From contig JBBTQS010000001.1 of assembly GCA_038065555.1 (NCBI GenBank), forward strand, positions 192,741-256,740: 64,000 nucleotides of DNA, written 5' to 3'. Numbering within the stretch: the stretch's first letter is position 1; the number at the start of each line of letters is the position of its first letter. The notes below the pieces were generated by a model. That model saw only the letters and a program-made list of their open reading frames with translations. It was not told the DNA's origin and did no database searches. Source of the stretch: Patescibacteria group bacterium (GTDB lineage Bacteria > Patescibacteriota > Patescibacteriia > Magasanikbacterales > JBBTQS01). This document shows positions 4,987 to 56,605 of the stretch, in pieces. A program made the position numbers and the translations under genes.

Positions 4987-7074
4987 TCAGTGACAGGCGT
5001 CCCGCACGGTGATCTCACCGACGAAGTGGAACGTCTGTTGGAAGACAGGCGAAGTCGAGACCTTGGCGCCGTTGCGCTTGAGATTGATCACGACTGTGCC
5101 ACTCGTGCCTACAGCAAGTGGTGATTGCGTCCCACCGGACTGCTGCCGCGAGTATTTCTCGCTCGGCCCATCGAAGACATTGCTATCGATGACAGCGCTT
5201 CCTTTCTTCACCTCCATGGTTGGGAAGGCGTCGCCGACGATGTCGTAGTGATGCTGCAGCGCGAACTCCAGCACCTTTGGCACTCCGCTCGTATCGCCCA
5301 GAGCATCCAAGTCGATCGTGATGCTCGCAGAGTCGCTACTCAGGAGAATACCGATTTCCTTGTTGCACGTACTGCCAACTGCGCACCACGGGCCGACGTG
5401 AAATCCAGAGCCTGCTGTGAACCAAGGTTGGAAGTTCCCAGCATCTCCTGCTTTGCCAGCGCTTTCGCTGACAATGAACGCGGGGTAGCCTGAGTGTACG
5501 CATCCCACCGATGGCTCGCACGAGTCGAGTGTGCAGACATCGCTGTCCGAACAATCTGTCGGCGTCGGTGTGACGCATTCGCCAGCAGCGCAGCCTTCGT
5601 TCTGGGTGCACGGATCGATATCCGAGCAGTCCAGCGCTTTGCCCACGCAGCTTCCATTGAAGCATGTGTCAGAATGCGTGCACGGCTCACCGTCGTCGCA
5701 CTCTGCAATATCTCCCGAGATGCATATACCTTCGGTGACGCTACAGTGGTCTCCCACAGTGCAGACATCCCCATCGTCACACACGACGTCGAGATTCTTG
5801 CTGAAGCACATGTTCTGATCCGGTCCTGGCGTGAGCTCGCACCAATTCTGTGTGCAGGCGTTGCTGTCGTCACATTCTTCGTTTTGACGACAGCACGCGG
5901 GGACTTCTGGGAACGAGCAGAGCCCGCTCTGTGCAACGCACAGGTCATACGAGCACGGATTCCCGTCCTCGCAGTGAACCAGCGTCCCCAACACACAGAC
6001 GTTCGCGACGCATGTGACCGGCTTGGTGCACAGCGTAGCGTCCTCGAGATGCGCGCAGTCTGACGTTACCGTACACTGACACACCTGCGCGTCCACTGCT
6101 CCACTCAGACATACTCCCGCATCGCAGACATCAGCAACCGTGCAGAAGTCGCCATCTTCGCACGCCACTTCATCAGCGAGAACCACCGACTTGATGATGC
6201 ATTCCCCTGTTGTTGGGTCACACATCTCGGGAGCGCACGGATCACTCGTATCGCAGATAATGCCGAGGCATTTGTCCACGACAGGGACGTCGTTGTCGAT
6301 CGTGGTATCAGGCGGATCAACGATGTCGCCATCGATGCCGTCTGTTGTACCCACGTCTTGTTGTCCAACGTCGTCGATGCCATCTGTGGCATCAGCGAGA
6401 TCCGTCGAATCGGTAGTGCCTACGTCCTCGAGTACATCCTCCGGCGGATTCACGATCACATCGCTGGCGTCAGTGCCATCCACACCGTCTACGTCAGTCA
6501 GGACCGCATCACTGCTGTCCGTTCCATCGGTGTCGGGCGCGTCTACACTGTCGTCACCAACGCTGCCATCGGTGTCGGGGATGTCCGCTGGGTCTTCGAC
6601 ATCAGGCACGTCCTCGAATGAGTCCGCGTCATCAGTCTCAACATCATCGGAATCCACTTCGACACTGCCGTCAGTGTCTGCGTCGGGCGTCTCCACCTCT
6701 GGGGTGTCTTCGCCGTCAGCTGCCACATCGGCGTCGTCTGTCGAGTCTGCATCAGCGTCGGCTAGGACTTCTGTGTCCTTGCCGTCGACCGACACTTCCT
6801 CGCCCGCGACATCAGCGCTGTCAGCATCCTCGCTGTCTGCGACTTCTTCGCCCACGCCGTCGGATGCATCAATGTCTTCGTCGAGCGCGATCGCGTCAGC
6901 GTCGGCGCTCGAATCTGACGCGTGGATGTCCGTGCTGTCGCTGACACTGTCAGCTCCAGCATCGTCCGCAACGAGACCGTCGCCAGTCCCGAATGTGAGC
7001 TGCGCCGGATCCGACGCGGTGAAAGGATTGCATGCGGCCGTAGCCGCGAAAAGTAGTGCTACTGCGATCCGCAT
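4987..7074 (-). CDS. Secreted/lipoprotein with long acidic D/S/T/V-rich low-complexity region followed by about 9 cysteine-rich repeats (C-x-D-G-x-x-C-T-x-D-x-C-x4-6-C)
   Basis: ORF-track ORF trimmed to the internal ATG (MRIAVALLFAATAAC: signal peptide with lipobox-like TAAC) preceded by GGGAGGT SD. Residues about 40-270 are almost pure D/A/S/T/V/E. Then CEDGDFCTVADVCDAGVC, CEDGNPCSYDLC, CDDGDVCTVGDHC, CDDGEPCTHSDTC etc. C-terminal about 200 aa beta-rich domain. Confidence 0.7.
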   Translation of the reverse strand: MRIAVALLFAATAACNPFTASDPAQLTFGTGDGLVADDAGADSVSDSTDIHASDSSADADAIALDEDIDASDGVGEEVADSEDADSADVAGEEVSVDGKDTEVLADADADSTDDADVAADGEDTPEVETPDADTDGSVEVDSDDVETDDADSFEDVPDVEDPADIPDTDGSVGDDSVDAPDTDGTDSSDAVLTDVDGVDGTDASDVIVNPPEDVLEDVGTTDSTDLADATDGIDDVGQQDVGTTDGIDGDIVDPPDTTIDNDVPVVDKCLGIICDTSDPCAPEMCDPTTGECIIKSVVLADEVACEDGDFCTVADVCDAGVCLSGAVDAQVCQCTVTSDCAHLEDATLCTKPVTCVANVCVLGTLVHCEDGNPCSYDLCVAQSGLCSFPEVPACCRQNEECDDSNACTQNWCELTPGPDQNMCFSKNLDVVCDDGDVCTVGDHCSVTEGICISGDIAECDDGEPCTHSDTCFNGSCVGKALDCSDIDPCTQNEGCAAGECVTPTPTDCSDSDVCTLDSCEPSVGCVHSGYPAFIVSESAGKAGDAGNFQPWFTAGSGFHVGPWCAVGSTCNKEIGILLSSDSASITIDLDALGDTSGVPKVLEFALQHHYDIVGDAFPTMEVKKGSAVIDSNVFDGPSEKYSRQQSGGTQSPLAVGTSGTVVINLKRNGAKVSTSPVFQQTFHFVGEITVRDACH

Positions 7075-7124
7075 GAGTGACCTCCCAGTCGTGTGCGGTG
7101 AATGGTCTTGGAGCGCCAATCCTA

Positions 7125-7195: not shown

Positions 7196-7618
7196 CTACG
7201 CGCGGCGACGGCGGGCAACGCGAATACGGACCAAGGATCGCTCGAGTGCTGCCTGAAGTGCAGCGAACTCAATATCATTAGCAAACTGACGCTTTGTGAT
7301 GAGTTCATGGGCACGCGCGCGAGCTGCTTCGGCACGCACAACGTCAATCTCGTCAGCACGCTCTGCAGCGTCTGCGAGAAGAATTACTTCATTGCCTCCA
7401 CGAACCTGGACGTACCCTGCAGCAGTTGCAACATGGTGCTCGCTTGCTCCTTCGCGAATGCGCACCTCACCTGCCTTCACAATACCTACAACAGGCATGT
7501 GGTGTGGCAAAATCGTGATCTCACCCATCTCCGTCATGAGCGATACAGAATCAACCGGTGCACGAAACACGACACGCTCTGGAGTGATGACTACAAATTG
7601 GAGTGTCGTGGTTGCCAT
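7196..7618 (-). CDS. atpC: F1 ATP synthase epsilon subunit
   Basis: 140 aa; MATTTLQFVVITPERVVF...ITILPHHMP typical epsilon N-terminal beta-sandwich plus C-terminal helical hairpin. Confidence 0.85.
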   Translation of the reverse strand: MATTTLQFVVITPERVVFRAPVDSVSLMTEMGEITILPHHMPVVGIVKAGEVRIREGASEHHVATAAGYVQVRGGNEVILLADAAERADEIDVVRAEAARARAHELITKRQFANDIEFAALQAALERSLVRIRVARRRRA

Positions 7619-7621
7619 ACG

Positions 7622-9846
<2,225 letters not shown>

Positions 9847-21878: not shown

Positions 21879-23027
21879 CTACAGGTCGATCTTGACCAGG
21901 TAGCCGCCGTTGTTGGAGTTGAAGACAGTGGAACTGAGGACGTTACCGTACGAATCGGTGAACCGCAGGGTCACGTCGTCGGCACCGGACGGCTTCTCCG
22001 GATACCAGACCGTTCGGTTACCCACGGCCACGACACTGCCGATCAGGAACCCATCATTCGTGCGAGCACCAGTCGGCACAGTGAGCTGAAACTTGATCAC
22101 GCGACGGTTCCAAGTGTTCTCAGAGTACCACGCCGACGCGTAGAAGTAGGTCCAGCTACGGTTGAAGCCGCTCTGTGCGCAGGTGGGTGTTGCGTAGTTG
22201 CTCATCCCGCCCCAGCTACAGAACTGCCCGTAGAAGTCAGCGCCCGAGAGATTGAACGAGGGTGCGGTGATCACCTCGACGTTCACGATCGCCACTGGGT
22301 TGCCGCTCCCTCCGCTTCCGCCGCCGTATCCTACCCAGACGCACTGATTGCTGCTGCACCCGTAGCCGCTGGCGCAATCACTGGAGGATCGGCAACAGTT
22401 GCTGATCTGCGTGTGCTGACACGAGCCGCCGGAGCTGCACCAGTCGTTGGTGCACACGTTGTTGTCCGCACACGACGCCGATGTGTTGCGGCAGTACGCT
22501 GCGCCGCCACTCACGTAGCACTCGTCCGTCGTACATCCATTGACATCGTTGCATGTGTACCGCGTTCCCTTGCAGACCCCGTTGCTCTGGTAGGTGTCGT
22601 TGTACGTGCACAGGTCCTGGTCGTTGCACGAGCCTGAGTACAGGTCCGTGCATGTGCCTGCGTAGCATCGCCGGTTCGCGCCGCACTGCGAGTCGTACAT
22701 GCAGCCGTCGTCAGACCCGGAGCACGTGAAGTCGATCGTGACGTTGCCCTTACAGCGGCCGTACGCGCACCACGACGACTCGAGGCTGACGCAGTTTGCC
22801 GAAAGGTCGGACTCATAGAGCCAGGCGTTGAACTCAGAGTACCCGCACTGACTACTCGAGTTGCAGGTCCCGAGCTCTGCCTCAATGACCCCCGTGCGCC
22901 CGCTCTCAGGAGCCGGGAGCGAAGCGATCTCCTGAGGAAGTGACGTGAACCCACCCGTCGCCATCGGATCTGTCCCGCATGCCACCATGGCTGCTGCGGC
23001 GCAGATCGCGAACATCAATTTTCTCAT
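21879..23027 (-). CDS. Secreted/lipoprotein cysteine-rich repeat protein with Gly-rich linker and C-terminal beta-rich domain
   Basis: Start at internal ATG MRKLMFAICAAAAMVACG (signal peptide/lipobox) preceded by AAGGAG SD. Mature protein has more than 45 Cys with repeats such as CNDVNGCTTDECY, CADNNVCTNDWC, then GYGGGSGGSGNP linker. Confidence 0.7.
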   Translation of the reverse strand: MRKLMFAICAAAAMVACGTDPMATGGFTSLPQEIASLPAPESGRTGVIEAELGTCNSSSQCGYSEFNAWLYESDLSANCVSLESSWCAYGRCKGNVTIDFTCSGSDDGCMYDSQCGANRRCYAGTCTDLYSGSCNDQDLCTYNDTYQSNGVCKGTRYTCNDVNGCTTDECYVSGGAAYCRNTSASCADNNVCTNDWCSSGGSCQHTQISNCCRSSSDCASGYGCSSNQCVWVGYGGGSGGSGNPVAIVNVEVITAPSFNLSGADFYGQFCSWGGMSNYATPTCAQSGFNRSWTYFYASAWYSENTWNRRVIKFQLTVPTGARTNDGFLIGSVVAVGNRTVWYPEKPSGADDVTLRFTDSYGNVLSSTVFNSNNGGYLVKIDL

Positions 23028-23130
23028 CGAACTCTCCTTGCTTGCGTTGCACCGCAACGCGCAAAACGACCAAGATTGCTCTCTTGGAAGTCCTGTGGGA
23101 TTTAAGCACGTTTTGTAGTTTTTGTCAATA

Positions 23131-23156
23131 GAAAAAGCCTGCACATGGCAGGCTTT
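23131..23156 (-). terminator. Rho-independent terminator after the exonuclease gene
   Basis: AAAGCCTGC-ACATG-GCAGGCTTT perfect 9 bp stem, followed on the minus strand by TTTTTCTATTG; coordinates approximate. Confidence 0.55.
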
Positions 23157-37703: not shown

Positions 37704-38005
37704 TTGCTATCTCCGCAAGATATTGTGTTATCACGATTCTCTCGTGGTGGACTACTGGATACTACTTCCAATAGTCGTCTAACCTAGCACAATTTGGTGT
37801 GAATGTCAAGAGTTGACCACTCAAATTTGCTTGCTCCACATAGTGGACGACATTAAAACTTATTTTATCACTTCAAATATCTACTTTCATGTCCCCAACC
37901 TTCAGAAAGCCAGCGAGTGATTCACAATTTAGAAAGTTTTGCTACGGTTTCCCATACTAAGTTACTATATTTCAGTGTGCACCGATAGCAGTTTTCATAT
38001 CAAAA

Positions 38006-38038
38006 TTAATGCCCTTAATTAAGTTTTAAGGGCATTAA
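38006..38038 (-). terminator. 13 bp perfect hairpin terminator whose upstream arm overlaps the last codons/stop of the island gene
   Basis: TTAATGCCCTTAA-N7-TTAAGGGCATTAA; on minus strand followed by TTTTGATATG; coordinates approximate. Confidence 0.5.
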
Positions 38039-39059
38039 AGATGTCCATAAATTTAACGTTACCGCTTTTTAGTAGTTCCTCCTGTTTCTCCACATCCTCT
38101 ACCTTAAAGAGATTTTCCATTGTAACCGTAACACTGAGATTCAACGGTGGACGATTTAACACCTCGTTTAACTTATTGATGAGGTGGCTACGAACCGCCG
38201 CTTCTACCTTTTTCTGTTTCAAAAAACGAAGTATTTGATAATACTCGGTAATGTACTTATTGGAACGTGAGCGCTGATTCCAACCAAAATCCTTCGTCAG
38301 TCTCGCAATTTCCAAAAACTTCGCCTTTTCAAACTCACTTTGGTCAAACCCAACATTTTCATTCACTTTCATTGCGTCCATCTGGAATTGCGGTATCAAC
38401 TCTTTACTAAGCTGATACAGACGTTTTAGAAGATAAAATGCCTTACGTCGGCCACCGTAGCCCTTCGGCATATCAATTCGGAGAATCTTTTCCGCAGGAA
38501 TTTTTATTATTTGAACGCGTGTATGTGACTCTCTAGCCTCCCACCAATGGACTAGCTGGTAGTAATTCTTGCCTAGGCGGTAAAGGTAGTAAGGTTGAAG
38601 ATGTTCAAACTCAAAACTCTCAATTTCACCCGCGTCATTTTTCTTATAAATTATCTCGTAAAATGCTACTCCGTCAGAAAAAAGAGAATGTGCGGCTAAC
38701 CTGACAAACTCACAGATTGCATCTTCAAGAAAATATGTGTGGTCTCTTTGAGAAATACCACTGGCAATCATTCGCTTTTTTGGAGTTGAAACCGCTGGCT
38801 CAATACGTGCTGGATACTTTTCTCTTTCACCGCGATAAATCATAAAAGGCATAATGCCTGTATACATATCCTCTACAAACATATGTGAATCCCCGTGATC
38901 GGGATATACTTTCCTGCGATACCGTCCTGTTATCCGAGCGGACAGTTGGTTACTGTCGCGTGGGCGTAAATACCACGGTTGCACCCAATGATTCAGAAAA
39001 AGCGGGTCTTTCAAAAAAGACCCGAGGAACTCTTTTCCTTTCTTAATATAGTTATTCAT
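38019..39059 (-). CDS. Island gene B: hypothetical soluble protein (about 346 aa from first ATG), no detectable family
   Basis: First ATG at 39059 (MNNYIKKGKEF) with AGGAAA SD; the ORF-track upstream extension begins with a TTG. Overlaps gene A stop by 8 nt (ATGAATAA). AT-rich codon usage distinct from flanking genes. Confidence 0.55.
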   Translation of the reverse strand: MNNYIKKGKEFLGSFLKDPLFLNHWVQPWYLRPRDSNQLSARITGRYRRKVYPDHGDSHMFVEDMYTGIMPFMIYRGEREKYPARIEPAVSTPKKRMIASGISQRDHTYFLEDAICEFVRLAAHSLFSDGVAFYEIIYKKNDAGEIESFEFEHLQPYYLYRLGKNYYQLVHWWEARESHTRVQIIKIPAEKILRIDMPKGYGGRRKAFYLLKRLYQLSKELIPQFQMDAMKVNENVGFDQSEFEKAKFLEIARLTKDFGWNQRSRSNKYITEYYQILRFLKQKKVEAAVRSHLINKLNEVLNRPPLNLSVTVTMENLFKVEDVEKQEELLKSGNVKFMDIFNALKT

Positions 39060-41568
39060 TGTCTTGTATTTCCTGATTAGGATTCTGTTGCTCCTCTTGG
39101 ATTGAGATCTTGAAATTATGTCTGTCTGGGAGCTCAATTCCTGCAGCAGATGGAAGGTTAGACAGGTAAGTAGCGAAGAAAATGTCCCGTGCGGAAGCCA
39201 TCAATCTCAAACCACCCAACCTTTCAAGTACCCTTACGATTGGGCTTGTATGGGTTGGCTGTCTACGACCATTTACAGTGTCGTAGCTCCTGTCATCAGG
39301 GAATACTGGTATACCTTGCTCGCGTAGTTCGTGTTCAAAGTTGATTTGCCAATTAGTTCGCAGTGTCGCTTGAGGCATTATGGTTAGCAGGCTATCTCGG
39401 TAAGCACTTACCCCCGCAATAAATTCTATGACTTTCTTGGCGTCAACAGCACCAAAATACTTGTTCCATAAATCTTCAAAAACACTCCAAATCTCTGGCT
39501 TCTGATAGAGCTCTGCATATAGCTTTGCGTATCCGCTGATTTCAAAAAGATTTTCAAGGGGTTCGCTTGCAAACACTATTTTGCTATCAAGCTGACTCCA
39601 ATCTTTTACTTTTTCACGTAGTCTTTCGTAAGCGGTAAGAGATGCATCAAATACGGCTGGCAAGATTTTCTTGAGTCTTTCAGGGTCTTTTTCTTCGCAA
39701 GCCTCATAGCAGGCTTCAACTCCTTCGGAAAGAGCCTGTCCGAAATAGTCTGGCAAACCATCACCTGTTGCAAGAGATTTGAGTTGAGGGAGCAATTGAA
39801 TCATCCTGTCGGTCACTTCCTTTTCGCGGTCTAGAGCTGTTTGCTTCTCCTTCTCAAAATCAAAGTCTGTCCAAGGCAAGTCTCCCAACAAGCGACGAGA
39901 GTTGGTGCATTCAACGTGTTTATTCATCTCAAAAACAAGTCTGCGGCACTTGGCAGAAAACTCCTTCCATTTCTGGATAAGGTGAACAGCCAAAGGCAAT
40001 TGTTGTGAGGCAAGTAAGGCATCAAGGGCTGACTGAAAATGTTCGGTATGCAACGACTTAATAAAATTGAAATAGCTATGCAATGAGAAGACATATTGCT
40101 GGAAGCAAAACGTATCTATATACCAATCTTCGGTTACGAGTTCTCCTTCAATGATTTTTTCATTCTCCAAGTCATTTTGAAGAGACTCCAAACGTGGGAG
40201 CATTGCTCCTGGCAACCCCGTGAGATAAATATGTTTTTTACCTGACAGCCACTTTATATCCGCTATGCGTTTTGCTATCGTTTCGCAAGAGTTTGCAGCA
40301 AGGTATTTTGTTAAACCTAGCAATGCTGCGATAGCGAGTCTGCTGTGCGCGTCCACAAAAGCAAGTTGTTCTTTGATTACCGGTTGCTGAACATTCGTTG
40401 CTTGTATTGCAAATAAGGAGTCCCTGATAGATTTTGTTTTTTTGAAAAGAAGCTCTGCACTTTTAACATCAAGATCTTGCGCGTACACATCTGCAATCTC
40501 AACGAATATATCTAAGGCGCGTGCACTGGAAATAATCCTTGTGCCTTCAGAAAAAGATTTAAATACCTCTCCCGCAATGCCCAAGACTTCATCCTCGTAC
40601 CAGGTGTAATTCTTTACATTTTTTGGCTGCAATGTTGTTCCAGTACTTAGCGCGATTGCAATTTCTGAAGAATTGGCAAGACCCCAATCTTGATACTCGT
40701 TTTTAGTTTCAAACCAGTAACTGTTTGTTGGGGTTTTGCTTTTAAAGCCTGCGTACGAGACAAGAATTCCACAGATATAGCCTATCGTTGTAACCAGTTG
40801 GTCGTCAGAGATTTTCATCTCGTCCTTCCCAAATCGCAGGAGGTTTTTGATTAAAGAAAATTTTGATGCGACCAGCCCTCTGTGATGATTTTGTATGGCT
40901 GGATTAGCCCACTGAAACCCTGGAGGTGCGATGCTTTTCATTGAAAAAAGGATGTCTCGCGTAATCCACGTTAGAGCGGACTGCGGCTCCAAGGAGTAAA
41001 AAACGTTCGTCCCTACCTGCCAAAATCTGATGACGATGTACGCAACCAATAGCGAGAGGAAGGCTAGACCTGCTGGATGAATTGTTTGGTCAAAGGATTT
41101 AAAAACGATGTAAAAGACACTCACTATACCTGTAATAGCTATTGTTCTTACGTACTGTCGTCCGCGTGGCTCTTTCAAGAAAAACTGCTTCACATTTTGA
41201 GGTGCACGCAAGAGATAACTGCTAGCAATACCAGATATTGCAGTGAAATACAGACCGAGGAAAACACCAGAGATACTGGCAACAACAGAAAGAAAAGTAT
41301 CAACAGCTTCTTTCTGATAGCGGAGATTTAAAGGGTAGTAAGCACTAAGCAGCTCTAAAATGAAAATTATAAATACGGAGTATGTTACTGCCCCGACAAA
41401 TGATTTTAGCGTCGGAAAGAGAATGTCTTTATCGATTTTGAATTGGTTTTTTGTGTAGCTACCACGATACATGCCTTTCCAAAAATAAAAGACTGGCTTA
41501 TCAGTAAGCCACTTTTTTGTAAGCCAGAAACCTTTCTTTCTGTATAGTTTGTTTCTAAAAGAAGTCAT
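39052..41568 (-). CDS. Island gene A: large membrane protein, 4-5 N-terminal TM helices followed by about 600-aa predicted alpha-helical soluble region; no detectable family
   Basis: 838 aa; TM helices at about 55-78, 95-120, 140-160, 170-190, 255-272; no nucleotide-binding or nuclease motifs seen; AT-rich composition. Confidence 0.6.
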   Translation of the reverse strand: MTSFRNKLYRKKGFWLTKKWLTDKPVFYFWKGMYRGSYTKNQFKIDKDILFPTLKSFVGAVTYSVFIIFILELLSAYYPLNLRYQKEAVDTFLSVVASISGVFLGLYFTAISGIASSYLLRAPQNVKQFFLKEPRGRQYVRTIAITGIVSVFYIVFKSFDQTIHPAGLAFLSLLVAYIVIRFWQVGTNVFYSLEPQSALTWITRDILFSMKSIAPPGFQWANPAIQNHHRGLVASKFSLIKNLLRFGKDEMKISDDQLVTTIGYICGILVSYAGFKSKTPTNSYWFETKNEYQDWGLANSSEIAIALSTGTTLQPKNVKNYTWYEDEVLGIAGEVFKSFSEGTRIISSARALDIFVEIADVYAQDLDVKSAELLFKKTKSIRDSLFAIQATNVQQPVIKEQLAFVDAHSRLAIAALLGLTKYLAANSCETIAKRIADIKWLSGKKHIYLTGLPGAMLPRLESLQNDLENEKIIEGELVTEDWYIDTFCFQQYVFSLHSYFNFIKSLHTEHFQSALDALLASQQLPLAVHLIQKWKEFSAKCRRLVFEMNKHVECTNSRRLLGDLPWTDFDFEKEKQTALDREKEVTDRMIQLLPQLKSLATGDGLPDYFGQALSEGVEACYEACEEKDPERLKKILPAVFDASLTAYERLREKVKDWSQLDSKIVFASEPLENLFEISGYAKLYAELYQKPEIWSVFEDLWNKYFGAVDAKKVIEFIAGVSAYRDSLLTIMPQATLRTNWQINFEHELREQGIPVFPDDRSYDTVNGRRQPTHTSPIVRVLERLGGLRLMASARDIFFATYLSNLPSAAGIELPDRHNFKISIQEEQQNPNQEIQDNE

Positions 41569-41630
41569 TGCTTATTTTGGTATTTCTTCAAAAAGGCATG
41601 GTTTCGTCCAAACCTCTGAAAAAGGCTCTC

Positions 41631-41658
41631 CTAAAAGACAAAAAGGCACCTTCGTGCC
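41631..41658 (-). terminator. Rho-independent terminator immediately after tRNA-Asn
   Basis: Minus strand GGCAC-GAAG-GTGCC followed by TTTTTGTCTTTT; coordinates approximate. Confidence 0.6.
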
Positions 41659-41672
41659 TTCTCGTCCTACTG

Positions 41673-41746
41673 GGCTCCGAGGGCGGGGCTCGAACCCGCG
41701 ACCAATTGGTTAACAGCCAACTGCTCTACCACTGAGCTACCTCGGA
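41673..41746 (-). tRNA. tRNA-Asn (anticodon GTT)
   Basis: Minus strand TCCGAGG-TA-GCTC-AGTGGTA-GAGC-A-GTTGG-CTGTTAA-CCAAT-TGGTC-GCGGG-TTCGAGC-CCCGC-CCTCGGA-G; cloverleaf with 7 bp acceptor, G73 discriminator; only CC of CCA encoded; coordinates approximate. Confidence 0.8.
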
Positions 41747-41794
41747 ATTCTGGGATCCGGCACTAGTGTACCGAATCCCGTGTGCTATTGTCAA

Positions 41795-43105
41795 TTACTC
41801 TTTTACTTCCATTTCCGAACCAGCTCCTGCCAACAATCCCATGAATACCGGGATCATTTCATAGACGCTCTTCGATGGGGTTGGGCGCTCGATGCGCAAC
41901 CCAGAGTTGAGCTTCGAGAATGTCATCTCCATGGGCTTGGTACCACGCAAATCCTTGCCGCTTGCGCTGGTCACTGCCTGCAACGTAATACGCTCCATTG
42001 CGCCAGTCTTTGCGTTGAGTGTGACGAAGATATCACCCTTCTCCTTAGTCTGCGCCGCTGGCACATCCTCTGGCTCCGTACCTGCGCTGAGAATTTGCTC
42101 AACGATCTTGCTACCATCTTCGCCCGCCTCAGTTACCAATTCCTTGCGATACGACTCGAGCTGCGTGGTACCCTCGGTATCCCCCGCTTTTTTGGTTTTC
42201 GCAAGCGCAGCGTCAATATCGCGCAAATACTGCTGCACAAATGTCTTCACCATGTCTGCAACGAATGCATCGCCTTGCGCATCAGTCACTTCACCCTTTT
42301 CCTCCATGCGATACTTGCCTTCGCTCACGAGCGAAAATGCAATGAGATCGTGGCGGCGCATCACGTCACCAAACAACGATGCATACGTTGCGCGATCAGA
42401 AACAATGAATCGTGTTGGCTGTTCCTGAATCAGCTTCAAAAATTCTGGATTATCTTGCGCCGCTGCGCCAAGTCCTGCGCCAAAGTCATTCAACATCTGG
42501 CGAACATTGATGTTGATCCAGACTCCCTTGACTGCTGTCAGATCAATGGGCATCTCCGGCATCTCAAATTTCGCAAGCTGCAAATACAACTCGTCACTAT
42601 TGAACGCCCGCATCATCATCGCTACCTTGAGTGTGTCCGAAGTAAGATCAAAATCAAACCGACCCTGCGTAGAAGTAGCACCAGTCTGCGCCCATGCGCC
42701 TGACATCGTAATCACCATGTTCTTGTACTGGTCAGCATAAGACTCCTCGGGTGGAACCACGATAACTTTGCCATTTTCTATGATTGTCAGTGACTCAACA
42801 GGAGCATCATCCACAGCACCAAAACTGTCCAGAGGGAACAGCAACGAGAATTCTCCGTCCTTTGCTGCAATAACCTTACTGATTCCCTGAATCACTGCCT
42901 CGCGAGGATCAGCACTAACCGCTACCGACTCCTCAGTAGCGCGACTGTTCCACCAGAATGCGAATCCAATGGCAATACCTGCGACAAGCACAAGTGATAC
43001 CAATGGCCAGAGCATCTTCTGCGCCATCGACCGCTCACCTACTGGTGGCATCATTGGTTGTGTCGGCTGCTGTGGAGCCGGCGTCTGTGGCATGGAGTTT
43101 TCCAT
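41795..43105 (-). CDS. Hypothetical membrane-anchored protein (Pro/Gln-rich N-terminus, single TM, large extracytoplasmic domain)
   Basis: 436 aa; follows rpoD. Confidence 0.45.
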   Translation of the reverse strand: MENSMPQTPAPQQPTQPMMPPVGERSMAQKMLWPLVSLVLVAGIAIGFAFWWNSRATEESVAVSADPREAVIQGISKVIAAKDGEFSLLFPLDSFGAVDDAPVESLTIIENGKVIVVPPEESYADQYKNMVITMSGAWAQTGATSTQGRFDFDLTSDTLKVAMMMRAFNSDELYLQLAKFEMPEMPIDLTAVKGVWININVRQMLNDFGAGLGAAAQDNPEFLKLIQEQPTRFIVSDRATYASLFGDVMRRHDLIAFSLVSEGKYRMEEKGEVTDAQGDAFVADMVKTFVQQYLRDIDAALAKTKKAGDTEGTTQLESYRKELVTEAGEDGSKIVEQILSAGTEPEDVPAAQTKEKGDIFVTLNAKTGAMERITLQAVTSASGKDLRGTKPMEMTFSKLNSGLRIERPTPSKSVYEMIPVFMGLLAGAGSEMEVKE

Positions 43106-50958: not shown

Positions 50959-52200
50959 ATGCCTAGAACCATTGCGATCATCGGTGCAGGCGCTGCAGGC
51001 ATGATGGCTGCAGCAACGATTCTCGAATCACATCCCGACCATGTGATTCATTTGTTCGACAAAAATCCGTCACTCGGGCGCAAAGTTGTCATCAGCGGCG
51101 GCGGTCGCTGCAATGTGACCACAGGAATCACCGACCGCAAAGTGCTCATGACCAAATACACGCGCGGTGCGCAATTCTTGTCGCACGCACTCACCGCATT
51201 CACTCCAGCGCGCGTTCGTTCTTGGTTCGAACAGCACGGCGTACCGCTCAAATGCGAAGAGGATCTGCGCGTGTTCCCCGTGTCAGATGATGGCAACGAT
51301 GTAGTGCGTGCATTTGAACGTGTTTTTCGCGCGCATGATGTGCGTACGCATTTGCGCGACAGCGTCACCACTCTCACCCATGATGGAGCGAACTTCGTCG
51401 TCACCGCATCATCAGGAATCTACTCCTGCGATGCCGTCATCGTCACCACAGGCGGCAACGCATATCGCCATACTGGTTCTACTGGAGACGGCTATGATTT
51501 CGCACGCGCATTTGGCCACACCATCACACCACTTGGTCCATCACTCAACAGCTTTGAGACGGCGCAGTCATGGTGCAAGGAATTATCAGGACTGAGTATG
51601 CCTGATGCGCAGTGGAGCGTGACAGTAGATGGCACCAAGCATCGCGTACATGGTCCCATGCTCTTCACACACTTCGGCGTCAGCGGTCCTAGCACGTTCG
51701 CACTCTCGTCACGCATTGCATTTGCGCCTATCAGCAAGCAACAACCACTCACTGTTGCATGGAGTCCCATTGCAGATCGCGATTTCCAATCCTGGGACGA
51801 GCAATTCTTGAGCGCCACACAAGAGAACGGTCGCAAGCACGTGCTCACATTCCTTGCACAAACACTCCCGCGCAGACTCGCAAGTACACTCCTCACACTC
51901 GCAGCTATCCACGAGGACACCACACTCGCCAATCTCACAAAAGAACTTCGCAAACGTCTCATACATCTCCTATCCGGCGAACTCTCTCTGACATTTTTGT
52001 CGCGCCGCGCTGGTGATGAATTTGTCACCGCTGGTGGAGTAGTGCTCGATGAAGTCGACCCTACAACAATGCAATCACGTCTTCGACCAGGGCTCTTCTT
52101 CGCAGGTGAGGTACTCGATGTTGACGGAGTCACCGGTGGATTCAACCTCCAAGCATCCTGGGCCACCGGACGCCTCGCAGGCACGCACGCTGCACAATAA
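50959..52200 (+). CDS. HI0933-family NAD(FAD)-dependent flavoprotein (BaiN/aminoacetone oxidase-like)
   Basis: Start at ATG MPRTIAIIGAGAAG (dinucleotide-binding GxGxxG); VISGGGRCNVTTG signature of the HI0933 family. Confidence 0.75.
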   Translation: MPRTIAIIGAGAAGMMAAATILESHPDHVIHLFDKNPSLGRKVVISGGGRCNVTTGITDRKVLMTKYTRGAQFLSHALTAFTPARVRSWFEQHGVPLKCEEDLRVFPVSDDGNDVVRAFERVFRAHDVRTHLRDSVTTLTHDGANFVVTASSGIYSCDAVIVTTGGNAYRHTGSTGDGYDFARAFGHTITPLGPSLNSFETAQSWCKELSGLSMPDAQWSVTVDGTKHRVHGPMLFTHFGVSGPSTFALSSRIAFAPISKQQPLTVAWSPIADRDFQSWDEQFLSATQENGRKHVLTFLAQTLPRRLASTLLTLAAIHEDTTLANLTKELRKRLIHLLSGELSLTFLSRRAGDEFVTAGGVVLDEVDPTTMQSRLRPGLFFAGEVLDVDGVTGGFNLQASWATGRLAGTHAAQ

Positions 52201-52278
52201 ATAAAAGCGCTGCTCCACTGTTGCGTTGCAACAATAGAACAGCGCAGTTGCGGCACACGTCTCGTGCCGCAGTCTCTC

Positions 52279-53025
52279 TCAGACACTGAGCCACGTCACG
52301 AGCTCTGCTCCGAGTAACCGATCGTTGAGCGCTTCGACGCCCTGACTCACGAGCACCTTGAGCTCATGCAGATCGATGATCACGAGCCCGGTGTTGTCGA
52401 ACTCCTTCGCGATCTGATGAAGGAACTCGAATGCCTCCTTACCACGACGCACCGCGATGAAGAGGAAGTAGATCTGCTCACCTCGTTGTTGTGCATCTCG
52501 AAGCGTCATACGCGTTGCAACCTTGTCGTTGTTGACCCCGTCGGTGACAACAAGCGCCAGAGCCGGATACTTGGGTGGTGCGATCGTCAGAAAATGCTCA
52601 CACAGCTTCGGCCCGTTCCACTGCTTTGGTTCAGGGACCTGACCGAAGATCTTGCGAAGATGAGACAGGACTGGTGCGAAGTCTGTCCCTCCTCCATACC
52701 CTTGGCAGTTGATGATGTGCCTTTTGACGTAACCATCGCTACTGGCCACGGTGAGCGGGTGCGTTTTGTGATGCACCATGTTGCGTTCTTCGTTGCTGAA
52801 TGTGCACACGTCCATCTTGTGATCTGGATCGAACACCTCGCCCCACGGAACCAGCGCGTCCACGAGGAGTTGCGTTGTTCCATCCTGATGTTCGTCCATG
52901 TAGCTGCGGGAGACATCGAGCGCGAACCCAATCTCCATCGGCTTGATCTTCTTCACTCCTTTTTTGATCAGCGAGAGCTGCAGCTTCTGGCCTGCCTCAG
53001 ACAATTGTTGCATCGTCATGATCAC
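52279..53025 (-). CDS. von Willebrand factor A domain protein with intact MIDAS (TerY/TerF-C-like vWA)
   Basis: 248 aa; MIDAS residues D-x-S-x-S (ALDVSRS), T (GGGTDFAPV), D (VVTDG). Confidence 0.55.
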   Translation of the reverse strand: MIMTMQQLSEAGQKLQLSLIKKGVKKIKPMEIGFALDVSRSYMDEHQDGTTQLLVDALVPWGEVFDPDHKMDVCTFSNEERNMVHHKTHPLTVASSDGYVKRHIINCQGYGGGTDFAPVLSHLRKIFGQVPEPKQWNGPKLCEHFLTIAPPKYPALALVVTDGVNNDKVATRMTLRDAQQRGEQIYFLFIAVRRGKEAFEFLHQIAKEFDNTGLVIIDLHELKVLVSQGVEALNDRLLGAELVTWLSV

Positions 53026-53166
53026 CTCCTTGCGCTTCGCGCATGCTCGTGCACACGTATGTGCAACGATAGAATATACACGACGTATCTCTGTGTGTCA
53101 ATAAGAAAACGCCGCTCCCACAGATGTGTAGAGCGGCGTCATGATCGCATCGCGTTCGCGAATTGA

Positions 53167-53667
53167 TCAGGCAGCCAGCGCCGTTGGCGGCTGGCTCAGT
53201 GCAGTCTCGTCCCTGATGAATGCGGACGGGCGAAGCACCACGATGTTGACGACGAGAGGAGCCTCACCCAGCGACCCAACAATGCTGACGTTGTCGAAGT
53301 GAACACCATCTGCATTGATCCTTGCGCGCTTGAAGTGCTGTTCCGTAATTGCTTCATCACAGATCAGCCGCATCGCATGTCTGATGCTGAGCTCGATGCT
53401 CTTCACACCAGGGCGGAGGGTAGTGGCCTTACGCACCTCTTTTCCAGTCTCAGGGAGATGGCGTGGCTCCAGACTTTCGAAGCCTGTCATTCCCACTGGT
53501 TTACGCACCTCCCACTCTGGGAAGCCACGCCGAACCCTGTGCCAGATCACCCATCCGAAAAGGTGAATCTCGATCACTTCTCGATACTCACCCCACCCAG
53601 CAACAGGAGGTTTCGGAATTTCCTCGCGCTTCTCCCGTTTCTCATCACGACGCATCAGTTCCCCCAT
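53167..53667 (-). CDS. Hypothetical protein (basic/charged N-terminus)
   Basis: 166 aa; GC-rich coding with high GC3; no family recognised. Confidence 0.4.
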   Translation of the reverse strand: MGELMRRDEKREKREEIPKPPVAGWGEYREVIEIHLFGWVIWHRVRRGFPEWEVRKPVGMTGFESLEPRHLPETGKEVRKATTLRPGVKSIELSIRHAMRLICDEAITEQHFKRARINADGVHFDNVSIVGSLGEAPLVVNIVVLRPSAFIRDETALSQPPTALAA

Positions 53668-53739
53668 GGTGTGGTGTCACGACTGCGCACCACTGTCGTT
53701 CCCTGCCAGACTACACCGTCGAACTGTCCAGCGTCAACA

Positions 53740-54219
53740 TTACACTTTGGGCTTGCGAGCGACGTATCCGCGATCCGATCGCTGGAACTCCGAGATGATC
53801 CGCACTGGCAGCGGAATCACGTTGCCCGACAGCAGGAAATCGATCTGATCGATCACGACGTCGTTGCCCACGTCACGCGCCGTCTCGAACGTCGCCTGCG
53901 TGATGAAGTTGCGTGGCACCCCTTCGGCGATCATGCGCAGCGCCTCGAGAGGCGACAGCACAACGTGCGCGATGAGGCTAATGTCCCAGTCATGCTCCTG
54001 CAGGAACGGGGCAAGGATGTGGTAGTCCACATCCTGCACGAACTTGCGGTCGACCACCGTGATGAGGCGTGGGTCGTACACCCAACTACCGACTTCGGGG
54101 TCCGTGAGCTCGAGGTACGGGCCCGGGAACATCCCCTCACGCACGTCCACGATCTTGCCGCTGCGGTCGAAGACCTGCCACTCTTTGTCACTCACCCACT
54201 TGAAGTTGTTCGATGGCAT
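53740..54219 (-). CDS. Hypothetical protein
   Basis: About 159 aa from internal Met (MPSNNFKW); very GC-rich (GC3-biased) relative to flanks. Confidence 0.4.
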   Translation of the reverse strand: MPSNNFKWVSDKEWQVFDRSGKIVDVREGMFPGPYLELTDPEVGSWVYDPRLITVVDRKFVQDVDYHILAPFLQEHDWDISLIAHVVLSPLEALRMIAEGVPRNFITQATFETARDVGNDVVIDQIDFLLSGNVIPLPVRIISEFQRSDRGYVARKPKV

Positions 54220-54301
54220 GATGCCCTCCGATTGTGTTCTGCAACGCACTTCGCGTGCAGGGAATGAGTGTAAGCACATTTGGTGGTTTTGTCAAGTTGA
54301 G

Positions 54302-54330
54302 GAATACAAAACACGCCCCGTATTGGGCGT
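54302..54330 (-). terminator. Rho-independent terminator immediately after tRNA-Ser
   Basis: Minus strand CACGCCC-AATACG-GGGCGTG followed by TTTTGTATT; coordinates approximate. Confidence 0.55.
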
Positions 54331-54339
54331 GTTCGTGCT

Positions 54340-54426
54340 GCGGAGGATGAGGGATTCGAACCCTCGATGACCTTTCGGTCAAACCAACTTTCCAGGCTGG
54401 CGCCATAGACCACTAGGCGAATCCTC
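54340..54426 (-). tRNA. tRNA-Ser (anticodon GGA), type II with long variable arm
   Basis: Minus strand GGAGGAT-TC-GCC-TAGTGGTCTAT-GGC-G-CCAGC-CTGGAAA-GTTGG-TTTGACCGAAAGGTCATC-GAGGG-TTCGAAT-CCCTC-ATCCTCC-G; CCA not encoded; coordinates approximate. Confidence 0.8.
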
Positions 54427-54434
54427 CAGCGTTG

Positions 54435-55217
54435 CTACTTTTTGCGAACTTGGGTTCCTTTCTTATACCAGAAGACCCCGACCAACACAAGAGCTGCGAT
54501 CGTTCCATATTGTGCAGGCGTGAGCCCTGCATACCGCACATCAGCTCCAGCAATATCAGTCGCCCGCAGGAAGTCCAAGAAGAACCTCGCTACCGCGTAC
54601 ACTGCGACCACAACCAGCATATGCCACCCACGCAGCCATCCCTGTGCGCGCAGGAACACGACGATCACTGCGATGCCCGCAGCAACAATCGCATCATAGA
54701 GTCCTAGGTCGTGCCTGCCCCACCCAGCGTCACCCCAATCCCCAGGTTCGCGCACGGCAAGTGCAAAATGCGTCAGCGTTCCTGGATGATCATGGATGAG
54801 AAAACATCCAATGCGTCCAACCATCCAACCCAGTGGCAACGCCAGGGCTCCTGCTTCGGCAAATGCATGCACATCCACGCGCGCTCTGCGCAATCTCCAT
54901 ATCCCGTAGCCCGCAGCTACAACAAATCCACCAAGGGACGACATGCCACCATGCCACACACGCAACACTTCAAGTGGATCAACGAGATACTGCGCAGGCT
55001 CATAGAACAATACATGTCCTAATCGTGCACCGACAAACCCTGCGATAATGATCGCAATTGCATGATCCACCCATGATGACGCATCTTTGCCCAGACGCTT
55101 TGCATCCCACCGTAATACGAGAAGTGACACAACGACACCCAGTGCAACGAGCAGTCCCCACACATGCAACGTCAGTGGCCCCAACGCAATCGTGTGCCAC
55201 GCAAAGTACGGAATCAT
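54435..55217 (-). CDS. lgt: Prolipoprotein diacylglyceryl transferase
   Basis: 260 aa; Lgt signature GRIGCFLIHDHPG and conserved His/Arg/Tyr positions, 7 TM. Confidence 0.85.
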   Translation of the reverse strand: MIPYFAWHTIALGPLTLHVWGLLVALGVVVSLLVLRWDAKRLGKDASSWVDHAIAIIIAGFVGARLGHVLFYEPAQYLVDPLEVLRVWHGGMSSLGGFVVAAGYGIWRLRRARVDVHAFAEAGALALPLGWMVGRIGCFLIHDHPGTLTHFALAVREPGDWGDAGWGRHDLGLYDAIVAAGIAVIVVFLRAQGWLRGWHMLVVVAVYAVARFFLDFLRATDIAGADVRYAGLTPAQYGTIAALVLVGVFWYKKGTQVRKK

Positions 55218-56605
55218 ACCTTCTTCGTCTTTGGTTTTTTCACTGTCTTTTTTGCAAGTGCAGCAAACACTTCTTCTACCGTGTCTACGACAGTAATCAA
55301 CTTGAGATCAGACACAGAAATCGTCTGGAATTTCTCTGCGAGCACATCGCGCATGAACGCCACCATTGGACCCCAATATGCCGTGTCATAGAGAATAATA
55401 GGAACGCGCGCCATTTTGTTGTTCTGTTGCAACGTGAGGAGCTCGAACAACTCATGCAGCGTTCCAAGCGCACCAGGGAAGAAAACAAATGCTTGACTAG
55501 GCGCCGTCAGAATCACCTTGCGAGTAAATGGGAATTCGAAGCTCACACTCTTGTGAATATACTGATTCACACGCTCCTCGCCGTTGAATTTGATTGTGAT
55601 CCCCACAGGATTACCACCCACATCTCGAGAACCCTTGCTCACTGCTTCCATGACTCCCATCCCTCCCGTGCTCACCACTGTATATTTTTTGGACGACAAC
55701 TCCCGACCGAGATGATACGCAGCTTCGTAGTACGGAGATGCGGTAGACACTTCCCCACTTCCGAGCACTGTTACATCATTGGAGAGTGTGGTGAGGAACT
55801 CGAACCCGTCCACAAGTTCTGCCATGATCCGGAAAATGCGCCAGTTAATATTGCTCCCGCAATCAAAGAGGTTGTGTGACAGCTCGCAAAGCGGCGCACT
55901 TACATTCTGCTTCTTGATAATCTCAATCGCTTCCTTTGCACTATCCACTACTTGCAGCTGTGCCAGAATCTTGGGCGTTATTGCATGGATCTTGCCCTTC
56001 GCTTGTTGCGTAAGAAACCGAACAATTGGTTCCCAATACTCACGACCAATGAGAATCAGCGGTGCAGCTGGCATCTTGCCAATGTTCATGTTGTCATACG
56101 CCTCGAACAACTCATCGAGCGTACCGAACCCTCCCGGGAAATACACAAATGCGCGTGACGGTGCTGTGAGCATCACCTTGCGCGTGAAGAAATAATGAAA
56201 CGCCGTGGACTTGCCCACGTACGGATTGATGCGCTGCTCGTGCGGCAACTCAATGTTGAGTCCCACTGATTCACCACGGGCCTCTTTTGCTCCGCGATTG
56301 GCAGCTTCCATAATACCGGGACCACCACCTGTCACCGTTACAAATTTGTTCTTGGCAAGGAGCTTGCCCAGCTCTCGTGCTTCACGATACCAGCGATGAT
56401 GTGGATCGTGGAGTCGTGCAGAACCAAGTACTGTGACCGCACGATCAAACGAGTTCAAGAACTGATACCCTTCAATGAACTCGGACATGATACGGAATAT
56501 CCGCCACGTATCTCGGTATTGCGAGAAGGGATGCTGATACGCAAAAGACAACGCATCTTGTGGCGGTGGCAACGGCGGGAGGGAAGGAGCTGATTTGCGG
56601 GGCAT
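55214..56605 (-). CDS. Tandem-duplicated LOG-family (TIGR00730 Rossmann-fold, lysine-decarboxylase-like) protein
   Basis: 463 aa containing two complete LOG domains each with GGGxGxMEA and PGGxGTxxE motifs (TVTGGGPGIMEA...FPGGFGTLDELFE and VVSTGGMGVMEA...FPGALGTLHELFE). Confidence 0.7.
   Translation of the reverse strand: MPRKSAPSLPPLPPPQDALSFAYQHPFSQYRDTWRIFRIMSEFIEGYQFLNSFDRAVTVLGSARLHDPHHRWYREARELGKLLAKNKFVTVTGGGPGIMEAANRGAKEARGESVGLNIELPHEQRINPYVGKSTAFHYFFTRKVMLTAPSRAFVYFPGGFGTLDELFEAYDNMNIGKMPAAPLILIGREYWEPIVRFLTQQAKGKIHAITPKILAQLQVVDSAKEAIEIIKKQNVSAPLCELSHNLFDCGSNINWRIFRIMAELVDGFEFLTTLSNDVTVLGSGEVSTASPYYEAAYHLGRELSSKKYTVVSTGGMGVMEAVSKGSRDVGGNPVGITIKFNGEERVNQYIHKSVSFEFPFTRKVILTAPSQAFVFFPGALGTLHELFELLTLQQNNKMARVPIILYDTAYWGPMVAFMRDVLAEKFQTISVSDLKLITVVDTVEEVFAALAKKTVKKPKTKKV

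Follow-up and report, generated by a model that had tools for sequence, protein, structure and literature searches.

A locus of a groundwater Patescibacteria lineage, which extends from a tRNA-Ser gene (anticodon GGA) to an HI0933-like flavoprotein gene, is probably a conflict-related locus and not a three-gene system. It was analyzed in a stretch of 64,000 nucleotides of contig JBBTQS010000001.1 (hereafter, the window). Three genes lie here on the same strand downstream of the tRNA gene: orf159, orf166, and a gene for a vWA protein (Table 1). Their coding signals, the promoters and terminators around them, and comparison with related loci suggest a recombination-prone variable locus composed of two independent units. 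One unit would be an orphaned vWA gene of the type known from Ter operons, and the other a fast-evolving pair of paralogs with hallmarks of toxin-antitoxin-like or sensor genes. We give this explanation, taken as a whole, an even chance of being correct.

Three Genes in Two Transcription Units

The tRNA-Ser gene, the terminator-like hairpin behind it, and the three same-strand genes described in the initial annotation are all present, based on ARAGORN, Rfam, the sequence itself, and the list of open reading frames (ORFs). All three genes are real. The codon log-likelihood per codon is +0.21 for orf159, +0.14 for orf166, and +0.21 for the vWA gene, and the reference range across 24 confident genes is 0.12–0.32. 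The ratio of nonsynonymous to synonymous substitution rates (dN/dS) against close relatives is 0.15–0.23 for orf159 and 0.15–0.19 for the vWA gene.

The three genes had been taken as one cluster. They are in fact two transcription units: one promoter and one terminator belong to orf159–orf166, and another promoter and terminator to the vWA gene. The promoter of orf159–orf166 (P1) has a TTGACA equivalent ahead of the orf159 orthologs in two more distant relatives, L054 and L057. Three consecutive hairpins end this unit at 53108–53196, with a fold z-score of −3.67. The stem of the terminator itself (53108–53140) contains one compensatory change, from a G-C to an A-U pair, between the two alleles of orf166. 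Behind it is the promoter of the vWA gene (P2). In the divergent intergenic region of another relative, L003, the −10 box of P2 is invariant and a −35 box is kept.

The vWA Protein and the Ter Operon

By its profile matches, the vWA protein is of the TerF type; it is not of the TerY-P type and not linked to MoxR. It matches PF10138 (vWA-TerF-like) at 46.7 bits (cut-off 29.4; E = 5.5e-12), where residues 31–219 correspond to positions 3–170 of the 200 in the profile. It also matches phrog_5359 at 3.8e-30, and the match to the general VWA model of Pfam is sub-threshold. The PADLOC search gave nothing at E below 0.1, and comparison with PDB by sequence gave nothing useful. The initial annotation had drawn parallels to TerY-like and MoxR-associated vWA proteins; the placement in the Ter world is right, and these two assignments are not. 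The metal ion-dependent adhesion site (MIDAS) was described there as complete. It is indeed complete, because the residues D35, S37, S39, T112, and D160 are invariant over nine family members with 39–91% identity.

Relatives of around 40% identity (37–43%, over 98–100% of the protein) are similar in length. In 41 of the 41 loci retrieved from GTDB species representatives, the vWA gene closes an operon with the order [TerC]-unkA-TerD-unkB-vWA. These loci span Burkholderiales, Bacteroidota, Actinomycetota, and several classes of Patescibacteria; other Patescibacteria with the family include Saccharibacteria, Adlerbacteria, Kaiserbacteria, and Nomurabacteria. The same order is seen in metagenome contigs, and phage records also hold the family, again with TerC or TerD. 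The unkB gene is TelA-like, with a weak match to TelA. This corresponds to the abbreviated Ter operon of bacteria and large phages, TerC–unkA–TerD–TelA-like–vWA (Iyer et al. 2021, PMC7824862; Anantharaman, Iyer & Aravind 2012, Mol Biosyst 8:3142). TelA and the TerF vWA protein have been proposed to build sub-membrane structures that stop the entry of phages or xenobiotics (PMC7824862).

The vWA protein of the window is a full-length homolog of the last protein of this operon, with the same MIDAS residues and a similar length. It differs in a shorter loop between T112 and D160, and its gene differs in having its own promoter and terminator. TerC, unkA, TerD, and unkB, the TelA-like gene, are all missing from the 64 kb around it, as judged by tblastn. 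In the family tree the protein is placed on a long solitary branch. The lack of Ter partners in the window and the long branch together indicate that it is a stand-alone derivative of the known family.

This monocistronic gene, which is under purifying selection, probably descended from the last gene of an abbreviated Ter operon and lost its Ter neighbors. The protein would still be a metal-dependent adaptor that binds other proteins, either with other partners or alone. Until now, TerF-type vWA proteins were known solely from the invariable final position of Ter operons. That one of them is kept by purifying selection without TerD, TelA, and TerC suggests a capacity to function in other settings, and such a stand-alone gene could help to define the role of the vWA component.

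The orf159 Family

An exhaustive HMMER search with orf159 against 1.84 billion representative proteins reveals only three true relatives, at 89%, 37%, and 32% identity, which makes orf159 and orf166 very rare. All three relatives are encoded in syntenic genomes with Lgt and tRNA-Ser immediately upstream; their other neighbors differ. Identity between orf159 proteins is just 31–36% where the housekeeping proteins of the same genomes are 75–90% identical, indicating that the family evolves fast. Every relative examined keeps orf159 at the tRNA-Ser site. As far as these searches reach, the orf159 family is an orphan family restricted to this Patescibacteria lineage, throughout which the locus keeps orf159 as its constant gene.

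The other searches gave no relatives farther away. A word-indexed search with orf159 and orf166 returned close relatives alone. Neither protein has a match in Pfam, PHROGs, NCBIfam, or PADLOC at E up to 0.1, and the distant relatives of orf159 have none either (P0013 and P0014 in Pfam; P0012, P0013, and P0014 in PADLOC). Sequence profiles of PDB gave noise only (for example, tryptase, E = 0.5). No new locus came from scanning metagenomes and viral sequences for orf159 and viral sequences for orf166; homologs of both are absent from viral contigs, and tblastn found none of orf166 in phage records. One further HMMER match, P0015 (3268 aa), is an artifact, in which a stretch of 20 residues matches each copy of a repeated segment; this giant repeat protein has Big_9 and cadherin-like domains.

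In L054 the gene order is DUF1761, the orf159 ortholog, and a gene for a 439-aa PP2C protein, with neither orf166 nor the vWA gene. Within this region (L054:7515-9889), a promoter of its own precedes the orf159 ortholog, the DUF1761 product is a membrane protein, and the PP2C protein carries an uncharacterized C-terminal region. The PP2C gene stands where the window has orf166 and the vWA gene. In L057, another small gene lies ahead of the orf159 ortholog.

The Palindrome Upstream of orf159

A palindrome lies just after the −10 box of P1, in the 5′ untranslated region of orf159. Its counterparts are at L054:7958-7990 and L057:~7612-7635. The two arms, CTGCACGC and GCGTTGCAG, are identical between the window and L054, where the orf159 protein is 36% identical. 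The counterpart in L057 is a related CTGCA...TGCAG element. In these alignments, the lineages differ less in the palindrome than in the downstream protein. An operator is one possible role, and a stem-loop or 5′ stabilizer of the mRNA is another. There is no covariation in the palindrome, so an RNA hairpin and a DNA operator are not distinguishable here. No DNA-binding domain was found.

Two Alleles of orf166 and Its Relationship to orf159

Two alleles of orf166 are seen, one in the window, L001, and L061, and the other in L002 and L003. They are 42% identical, and synonymous divergence is saturated. The cassette at 53005–53745, around 700 bp with orf166 and the downstream intergenic region, shows 51–72% DNA identity to L002 and L003, while its flanks show 87–97%. 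Between the window and L001 the cassette is nearly identical, yet parts of the adjacent orf159 are 8–11% different. The identity profile around orf166 is thus read as a mosaic pattern of recombination, and orf166 as the diversifying member of the pair with two deep alleles.

The end of orf166 is an exception to this divergence. Its last 11 residues, ALSQPPTALAA, are identical in both alleles, even at the DNA level. In both, an island of 37 nt (53164–53200) with the codons of the ...SQPPTALAA tail and the stop is invariant. A C-terminal LAA is the signal by which ClpXP recognizes ssrA tags. It is seen at the end of only one among the 231 ORF segments of the window, and this is orf166. The invariant tail codons also form a GC hairpin of 10 bp.

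The C-terminal halves of orf159 and orf166 can be aligned by hhalign (LSxxxAhRhI...ITxxxFxxAR). The score is 27.9, and 300 column shuffles gave a mean of 12.5, a standard deviation (sd) of 2.3, and a maximum of 21.7. The two families are also reciprocal best weak matches among all ORFs of the loci. With moderate confidence, orf159 and orf166 are probably tandem paralogs, which share a C-terminal module of about 50 residues.

Base Composition

GC content at third codon positions (GC3) is 0.831 for orf159, 0.611 for orf166, and 0.684 for the vWA gene. The 64 long ORFs of the window have a mean of 0.541 with a sd of 0.062; the respective z-scores are thus +4.6, +1.1, and +2.3, and orf159 has the highest GC3 of all 64. 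Total GC is modestly raised, 0.56–0.57 against 0.516. The compositional bias of the initial annotation therefore stands for the GC3 of orf159 and is mild for total GC. The orf159 orthologs have a high GC3 in all lineages examined (0.81, 0.75, and 0.67; background around 0.50). Since they occupy the corresponding site in genomes with housekeeping proteins 75–90% identical to those of the window, the GC3 of orf159 is an old trait and not the mark of a recent import. As a caution for similar analyses, conserved high GC3 beside a tRNA gene alone is no proof of recent horizontal transfer.

Variability of the Locus

The region next to the tRNA gene is variable and prone to defence genes, in keeping with the initial annotation of an atypical block beside a tRNA gene. 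In L001, which is 93–97% identical to the window, an insertion of 5.65 kb is located exactly at the 3′ end of tRNA-Ser and abuts orf159 (L001:4286-9935; 54339/54340 in the window). The genes of this island encode a Ppl-like ABC ATPase of 860 aa and, for restriction-modification, a helix-turn-helix C-protein, an EcoRI-like type II methyltransferase, and a restriction enzyme of the GmrSD_N/HNH kind. An integrase is lacking, and the junctions show only a repeat of ~4–7 bp.

Several metagenome contigs end in the locus: L059 after Lgt and the tRNA gene, and L060 and L057 after orf159. L002, which comes from the same sample as L059, starts at orf159. These breaks at tRNA-Ser or after orf159 fit strain heterogeneity within samples. 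The sample of one relative is labelled Hain_H41, which we take to be Hainich groundwater. LigA of the window itself is identical to MEK7647663.1.

Resemblance to Defence and Toxin-Antitoxin Systems

Type II toxin-antitoxin systems are similar to orf159–orf166 in several respects. Two small cytoplasmic proteins are encoded under one promoter, P1, and one terminator, and the palindrome is placed between the −10 box and the ribosome-binding site of orf159. As in toxin-antitoxin and abortive infection systems, one member diversifies, and this member, orf166, ends in ...ALAA like the ssrA degron, with a tail that overlaps the GC hairpin. The pair is also in a variable spot prone to defence islands. 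The differences are as follows. No toxin or antitoxin domain is recognizable in either protein, and the two are apparent paralogs of each other, which is unusual for such pairs. The spacer between the two genes is 72 nt, without overlap, and L054 has orf159 without orf166.

The TerY-P triad, a described phage-defence system, is composed of a TerY vWA protein, a PP2C phosphatase, and a Ser/Thr kinase. The locus resembles it in the presence of a MIDAS vWA protein in a defence-prone spot, and in L054 a PP2C gene takes the position of the vWA gene beside the orf159 ortholog. However, the vWA protein has no PADLOC match at the threshold above and is of the TerF type in Pfam. No kinase or phosphatase is present in the window, and in the loci examined vWA and PP2C never occur together; the PP2C gene of L054 is without vWA. 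MoxR-vWA pairs differ in that no AAA+ gene is seen in the immediate flanks (~50.4–56.6 kb). The neighboring genes thus bear out the earlier remark that the vWA gene has no phosphatase, kinase, or AAA partner.

These comparisons lead to the preferred explanation for orf159–orf166. The operon would encode two cytoplasmic proteins with a common C-terminal module, which act as a toxin-antitoxin-like or sensor-effector conflict module. By analogy with ssrA tags, the ...ALAA tail would make orf166 a putative ClpXP substrate. The operon might be controlled via the palindrome at the promoter and the turnover of orf166. Several features are typical of conflict genes: the variability of the locus, the deep alleles, a tail resembling a degron, and a regulatory element that has changed less than its protein. 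What the data show is that the genes are real, which signals delimit the transcription units, the usual operon of the vWA family, the allelic cassette, and the restriction to one lineage; any binding, toxicity, proteolysis, or defence role is inferred. Phage defence in Patescibacteria has received little study, and for most orphan genes of the group no role has been proposed.

Some results weigh against this explanation. No known toxin, antitoxin, immunity, or defence domain was found in orf159 or orf166 with Pfam, PHROGs, NCBIfam, PADLOC, and PDB. Structure prediction, proposed earlier together with profile searches for the two small proteins, did not give a confident fold, just as the profile searches gave no family: the AlphaFold2 models, built on 3-sequence alignments, are unreliable (predicted local distance difference test of 45 and 52), and Foldseek found nothing in PDB below E = 0.2 with these low-confidence models. 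The hhalign probability of the match between orf159 and orf166 is 21%. The tail codons of orf166 form a GC hairpin, so an RNA or DNA structure, not a degron, could explain their invariance. Finally, the search for Ter genes spans the 64 kb window of a contig of about 881 kb, and relatives were read over flanks of up to 10 kb; with a Ter operon elsewhere in the genome, the vWA protein would be an extra paralog, not an orphan.

Alternative Explanations

The three could be ordinary genes specific to the lineage, with no role in conflict. GC3 and the mosaic alleles would then come from a recombination hotspot adjacent to the tRNA gene, through GC-biased gene conversion, and the vWA gene would be a remnant, in decay or put to new use. 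We regard this as possible rather than probable. The mosaic identity profile and the allele swap do show frequent recombination, and GC3 is up in all three genes and in the orf159 orthologs of every lineage. None of the three proteins matches a defence family, and Patescibacteria genomes carry many orphan genes. However, all three genes are under purifying selection, and both units have strong promoters close to the consensus. The palindrome is better conserved than the protein behind it, and a defence island was inserted at the same site in L001. Two deep alleles of orf166 are maintained side by side, and only orf159 and orf166 evolve fast, with flanking genes 75–98% identical; both are typical of conflict genes.

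It is unlikely that the three genes form one new system for stress signaling or phage defence, in which orf159 and orf166 replace TerD and TelA beside a MIDAS vWA protein and PP2C replaces vWA in related genomes. The three genes are adjacent on the same strand in at least six assemblies of close relatives, all three have GC3 above the background, and the defence island of L001 abuts them. The pair orf159–orf166 is placed where TerD and a TelA-like gene sit in the canonical operon. The PP2C gene of L054, at the position of orf166 plus the vWA gene, recalls the vWA/PP2C/kinase combination of TerY-P triads. Against this, a strong terminator and a separate promoter, both conserved across alleles, lie between orf166 and the vWA gene. 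It had been asked whether the three genes recur as a unit elsewhere. They are found together only in relatives at least 88% identical, among which synteny says little, and L054 has orf159 with PP2C and no vWA gene. Conversely, neither orf159 nor orf166 is present at any of the 41 other loci of the vWA family or in phages with this family. Profile comparison of orf159 and orf166 with TerD, TerC, unkA, unkB, and vWA gave no signal (E = 0.05–0.8).

A bolder version of the preferred explanation appears quite unlikely. It would see orf159–orf166 as a previously unseen, Patescibacteria-specific two-protein conflict module, with orf159 as the constant effector and orf166 as a diversifying, ClpXP-labile paralog acting as antitoxin or phage sensor. 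Its signaling partners at the locus would be interchangeable: here a vWA protein with a MIDAS, taken over from a Ter operon, and PP2C in another lineage.

That the genes belong to a GC-rich genomic island recently acquired at tRNA-Ser is very unlikely and has been largely refuted. They adjoin a tRNA gene, the GC3 of orf159 is 4.6 sd above the mean of the window, and a true island is inserted at this tRNA gene in L001. However, no integrase and no duplicated 3′ end of the tRNA gene flank the three genes. Syntenic and GC3-rich orf159 genes in L054 and L057 show that the lineage has long had this gene. Outside the lineage, no relative of orf159 turned up in the exhaustive search, and viral contigs have no homologs of orf159 or orf166. 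There is no empty site either, as orf159 is in place in every relative examined.

The last alternative, that the small minus-strand ORFs lack coding signal and the plus-strand ORF at 53299–54267 is the real gene, was raised in the initial annotation and is refuted: this ORF (322 aa, opposite orf166 and orf159) is long and is open in relatives over the orf159 part, but its codon log-likelihood is −0.04, dN/dS is 1.3–1.8 in its frame, antisense to orf159, and it has no Pfam match. At a GC3 of 0.83, stop codons become scarce on the complementary strand, and a long shadow ORF opposite such a gene is no surprise. Both this ORF and the one opposite the vWA gene (52366–53166 on the plus strand, 266 aa, codon log-likelihood −0.08) have dN/dS above 1 and are shadow ORFs.

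Features of the Locus and Other Regions of the Window

Table 1. Positions of genes and signals from tRNA-Ser to the end of the vWA unit, in window coordinates.
Feature	Position	Strand	Basis and remarks
tRNA-Ser (anticodon GGA)	54340..54427	minus	ARAGORN; Rfam tRNA, 56.3 bits; junction alignments
Terminator-like hairpin (ACACGCCC/GGGCGTGT) and T-run, directly 3′ of tRNA-Ser	~54305..54332	minus	Read from sequence
Promoter P1 of orf159–orf166, TTGACA-17-TACACT	54267..54295	minus	Promoter scan, 10/12 matches
Palindrome or stem-loop in the 5′ untranslated region, CTGCACGC-N5-GCGTTGCAG	54231..54266	minus	Alignments and consensus fold
orf159 (MEK7647658.1, annotated hypothetical)	53740..54219	minus	159 aa; ATG after GGAGGG ribosome-binding site
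orf166 (MEK7647657.1, annotated hypothetical)	53167..53667	minus	166 aa
Hairpin 1 of 3 at the operon end, within the coding tail of orf166	53173..53196	minus	Fold
Hairpin 2 of 3, across the stop codon of orf166	53142..53169	minus	Fold
Hairpin 3 of 3 and T-run, intrinsic terminator of orf159–orf166	53108..53140	minus	Fold
Promoter P2 of the vWA gene alone, TTGACA-17-TATATT	53073..53101	minus	Promoter scan, 11/12 matches
vWA gene (MEK7647656.1, VWA domain-containing protein)	52279..53019	minus	246 aa; AGGAGG ahead of ATG 53019
Terminator, GC-rich 18-bp hairpin and T-run, between the convergent vWA and HI0933-like genes	52207..52245	minus	Terminator scan

Two candidate starts were rejected. GTG 53025 for the vWA gene sits inside the AGGAGG ribosome-binding site, and ATG 53019 matches MEK7647656.1, which shortens the protein from the 248 aa given at first. 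The start of a 179-aa form of orf159, at 54279, is located in the region of the promoter, and the 159-aa form is the one annotated in several assemblies. An alternative start of orf166 is Met5 (53655), which gives 162 aa and is where the second allele begins.

The hairpin behind tRNA-Ser is kept in L001 and L003 and missing in L054; a simple terminator scan did not call it. The Rfam scan of 52000–54600 gave the tRNA as its sole match. According to Pfam, the neighbors of the three genes are the HI0933-like flavoprotein, Lgt, and a LOG-family protein. The last is encoded upstream of Lgt (55214–56605); it has 463 aa with two tandem LOG/SLOG (Lysine_decarbox/LDcluster4) domains and is present in all relatives.

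Elsewhere in the window, an AT-rich block at 38000–42000 (GC 0.41–0.44 against 0.52) adjoins tRNA-Asn (41671–41747) and looks like a separate island-like region. It contains an ORF of 838 aa (39052–41568; GC3 0.41) without a match in Pfam or PADLOC. Two other large ORFs are high in GC3, 21879–23144 (0.78) and 4987–7119 (0.65). The former has an odd codon-position profile, with GC1 (0.46) lower than GC2 (0.55). In Pfam, these two ORFs give single, marginal matches to Dicty_CTDC-type repeats alone, and they may encode repeat-rich surface proteins.

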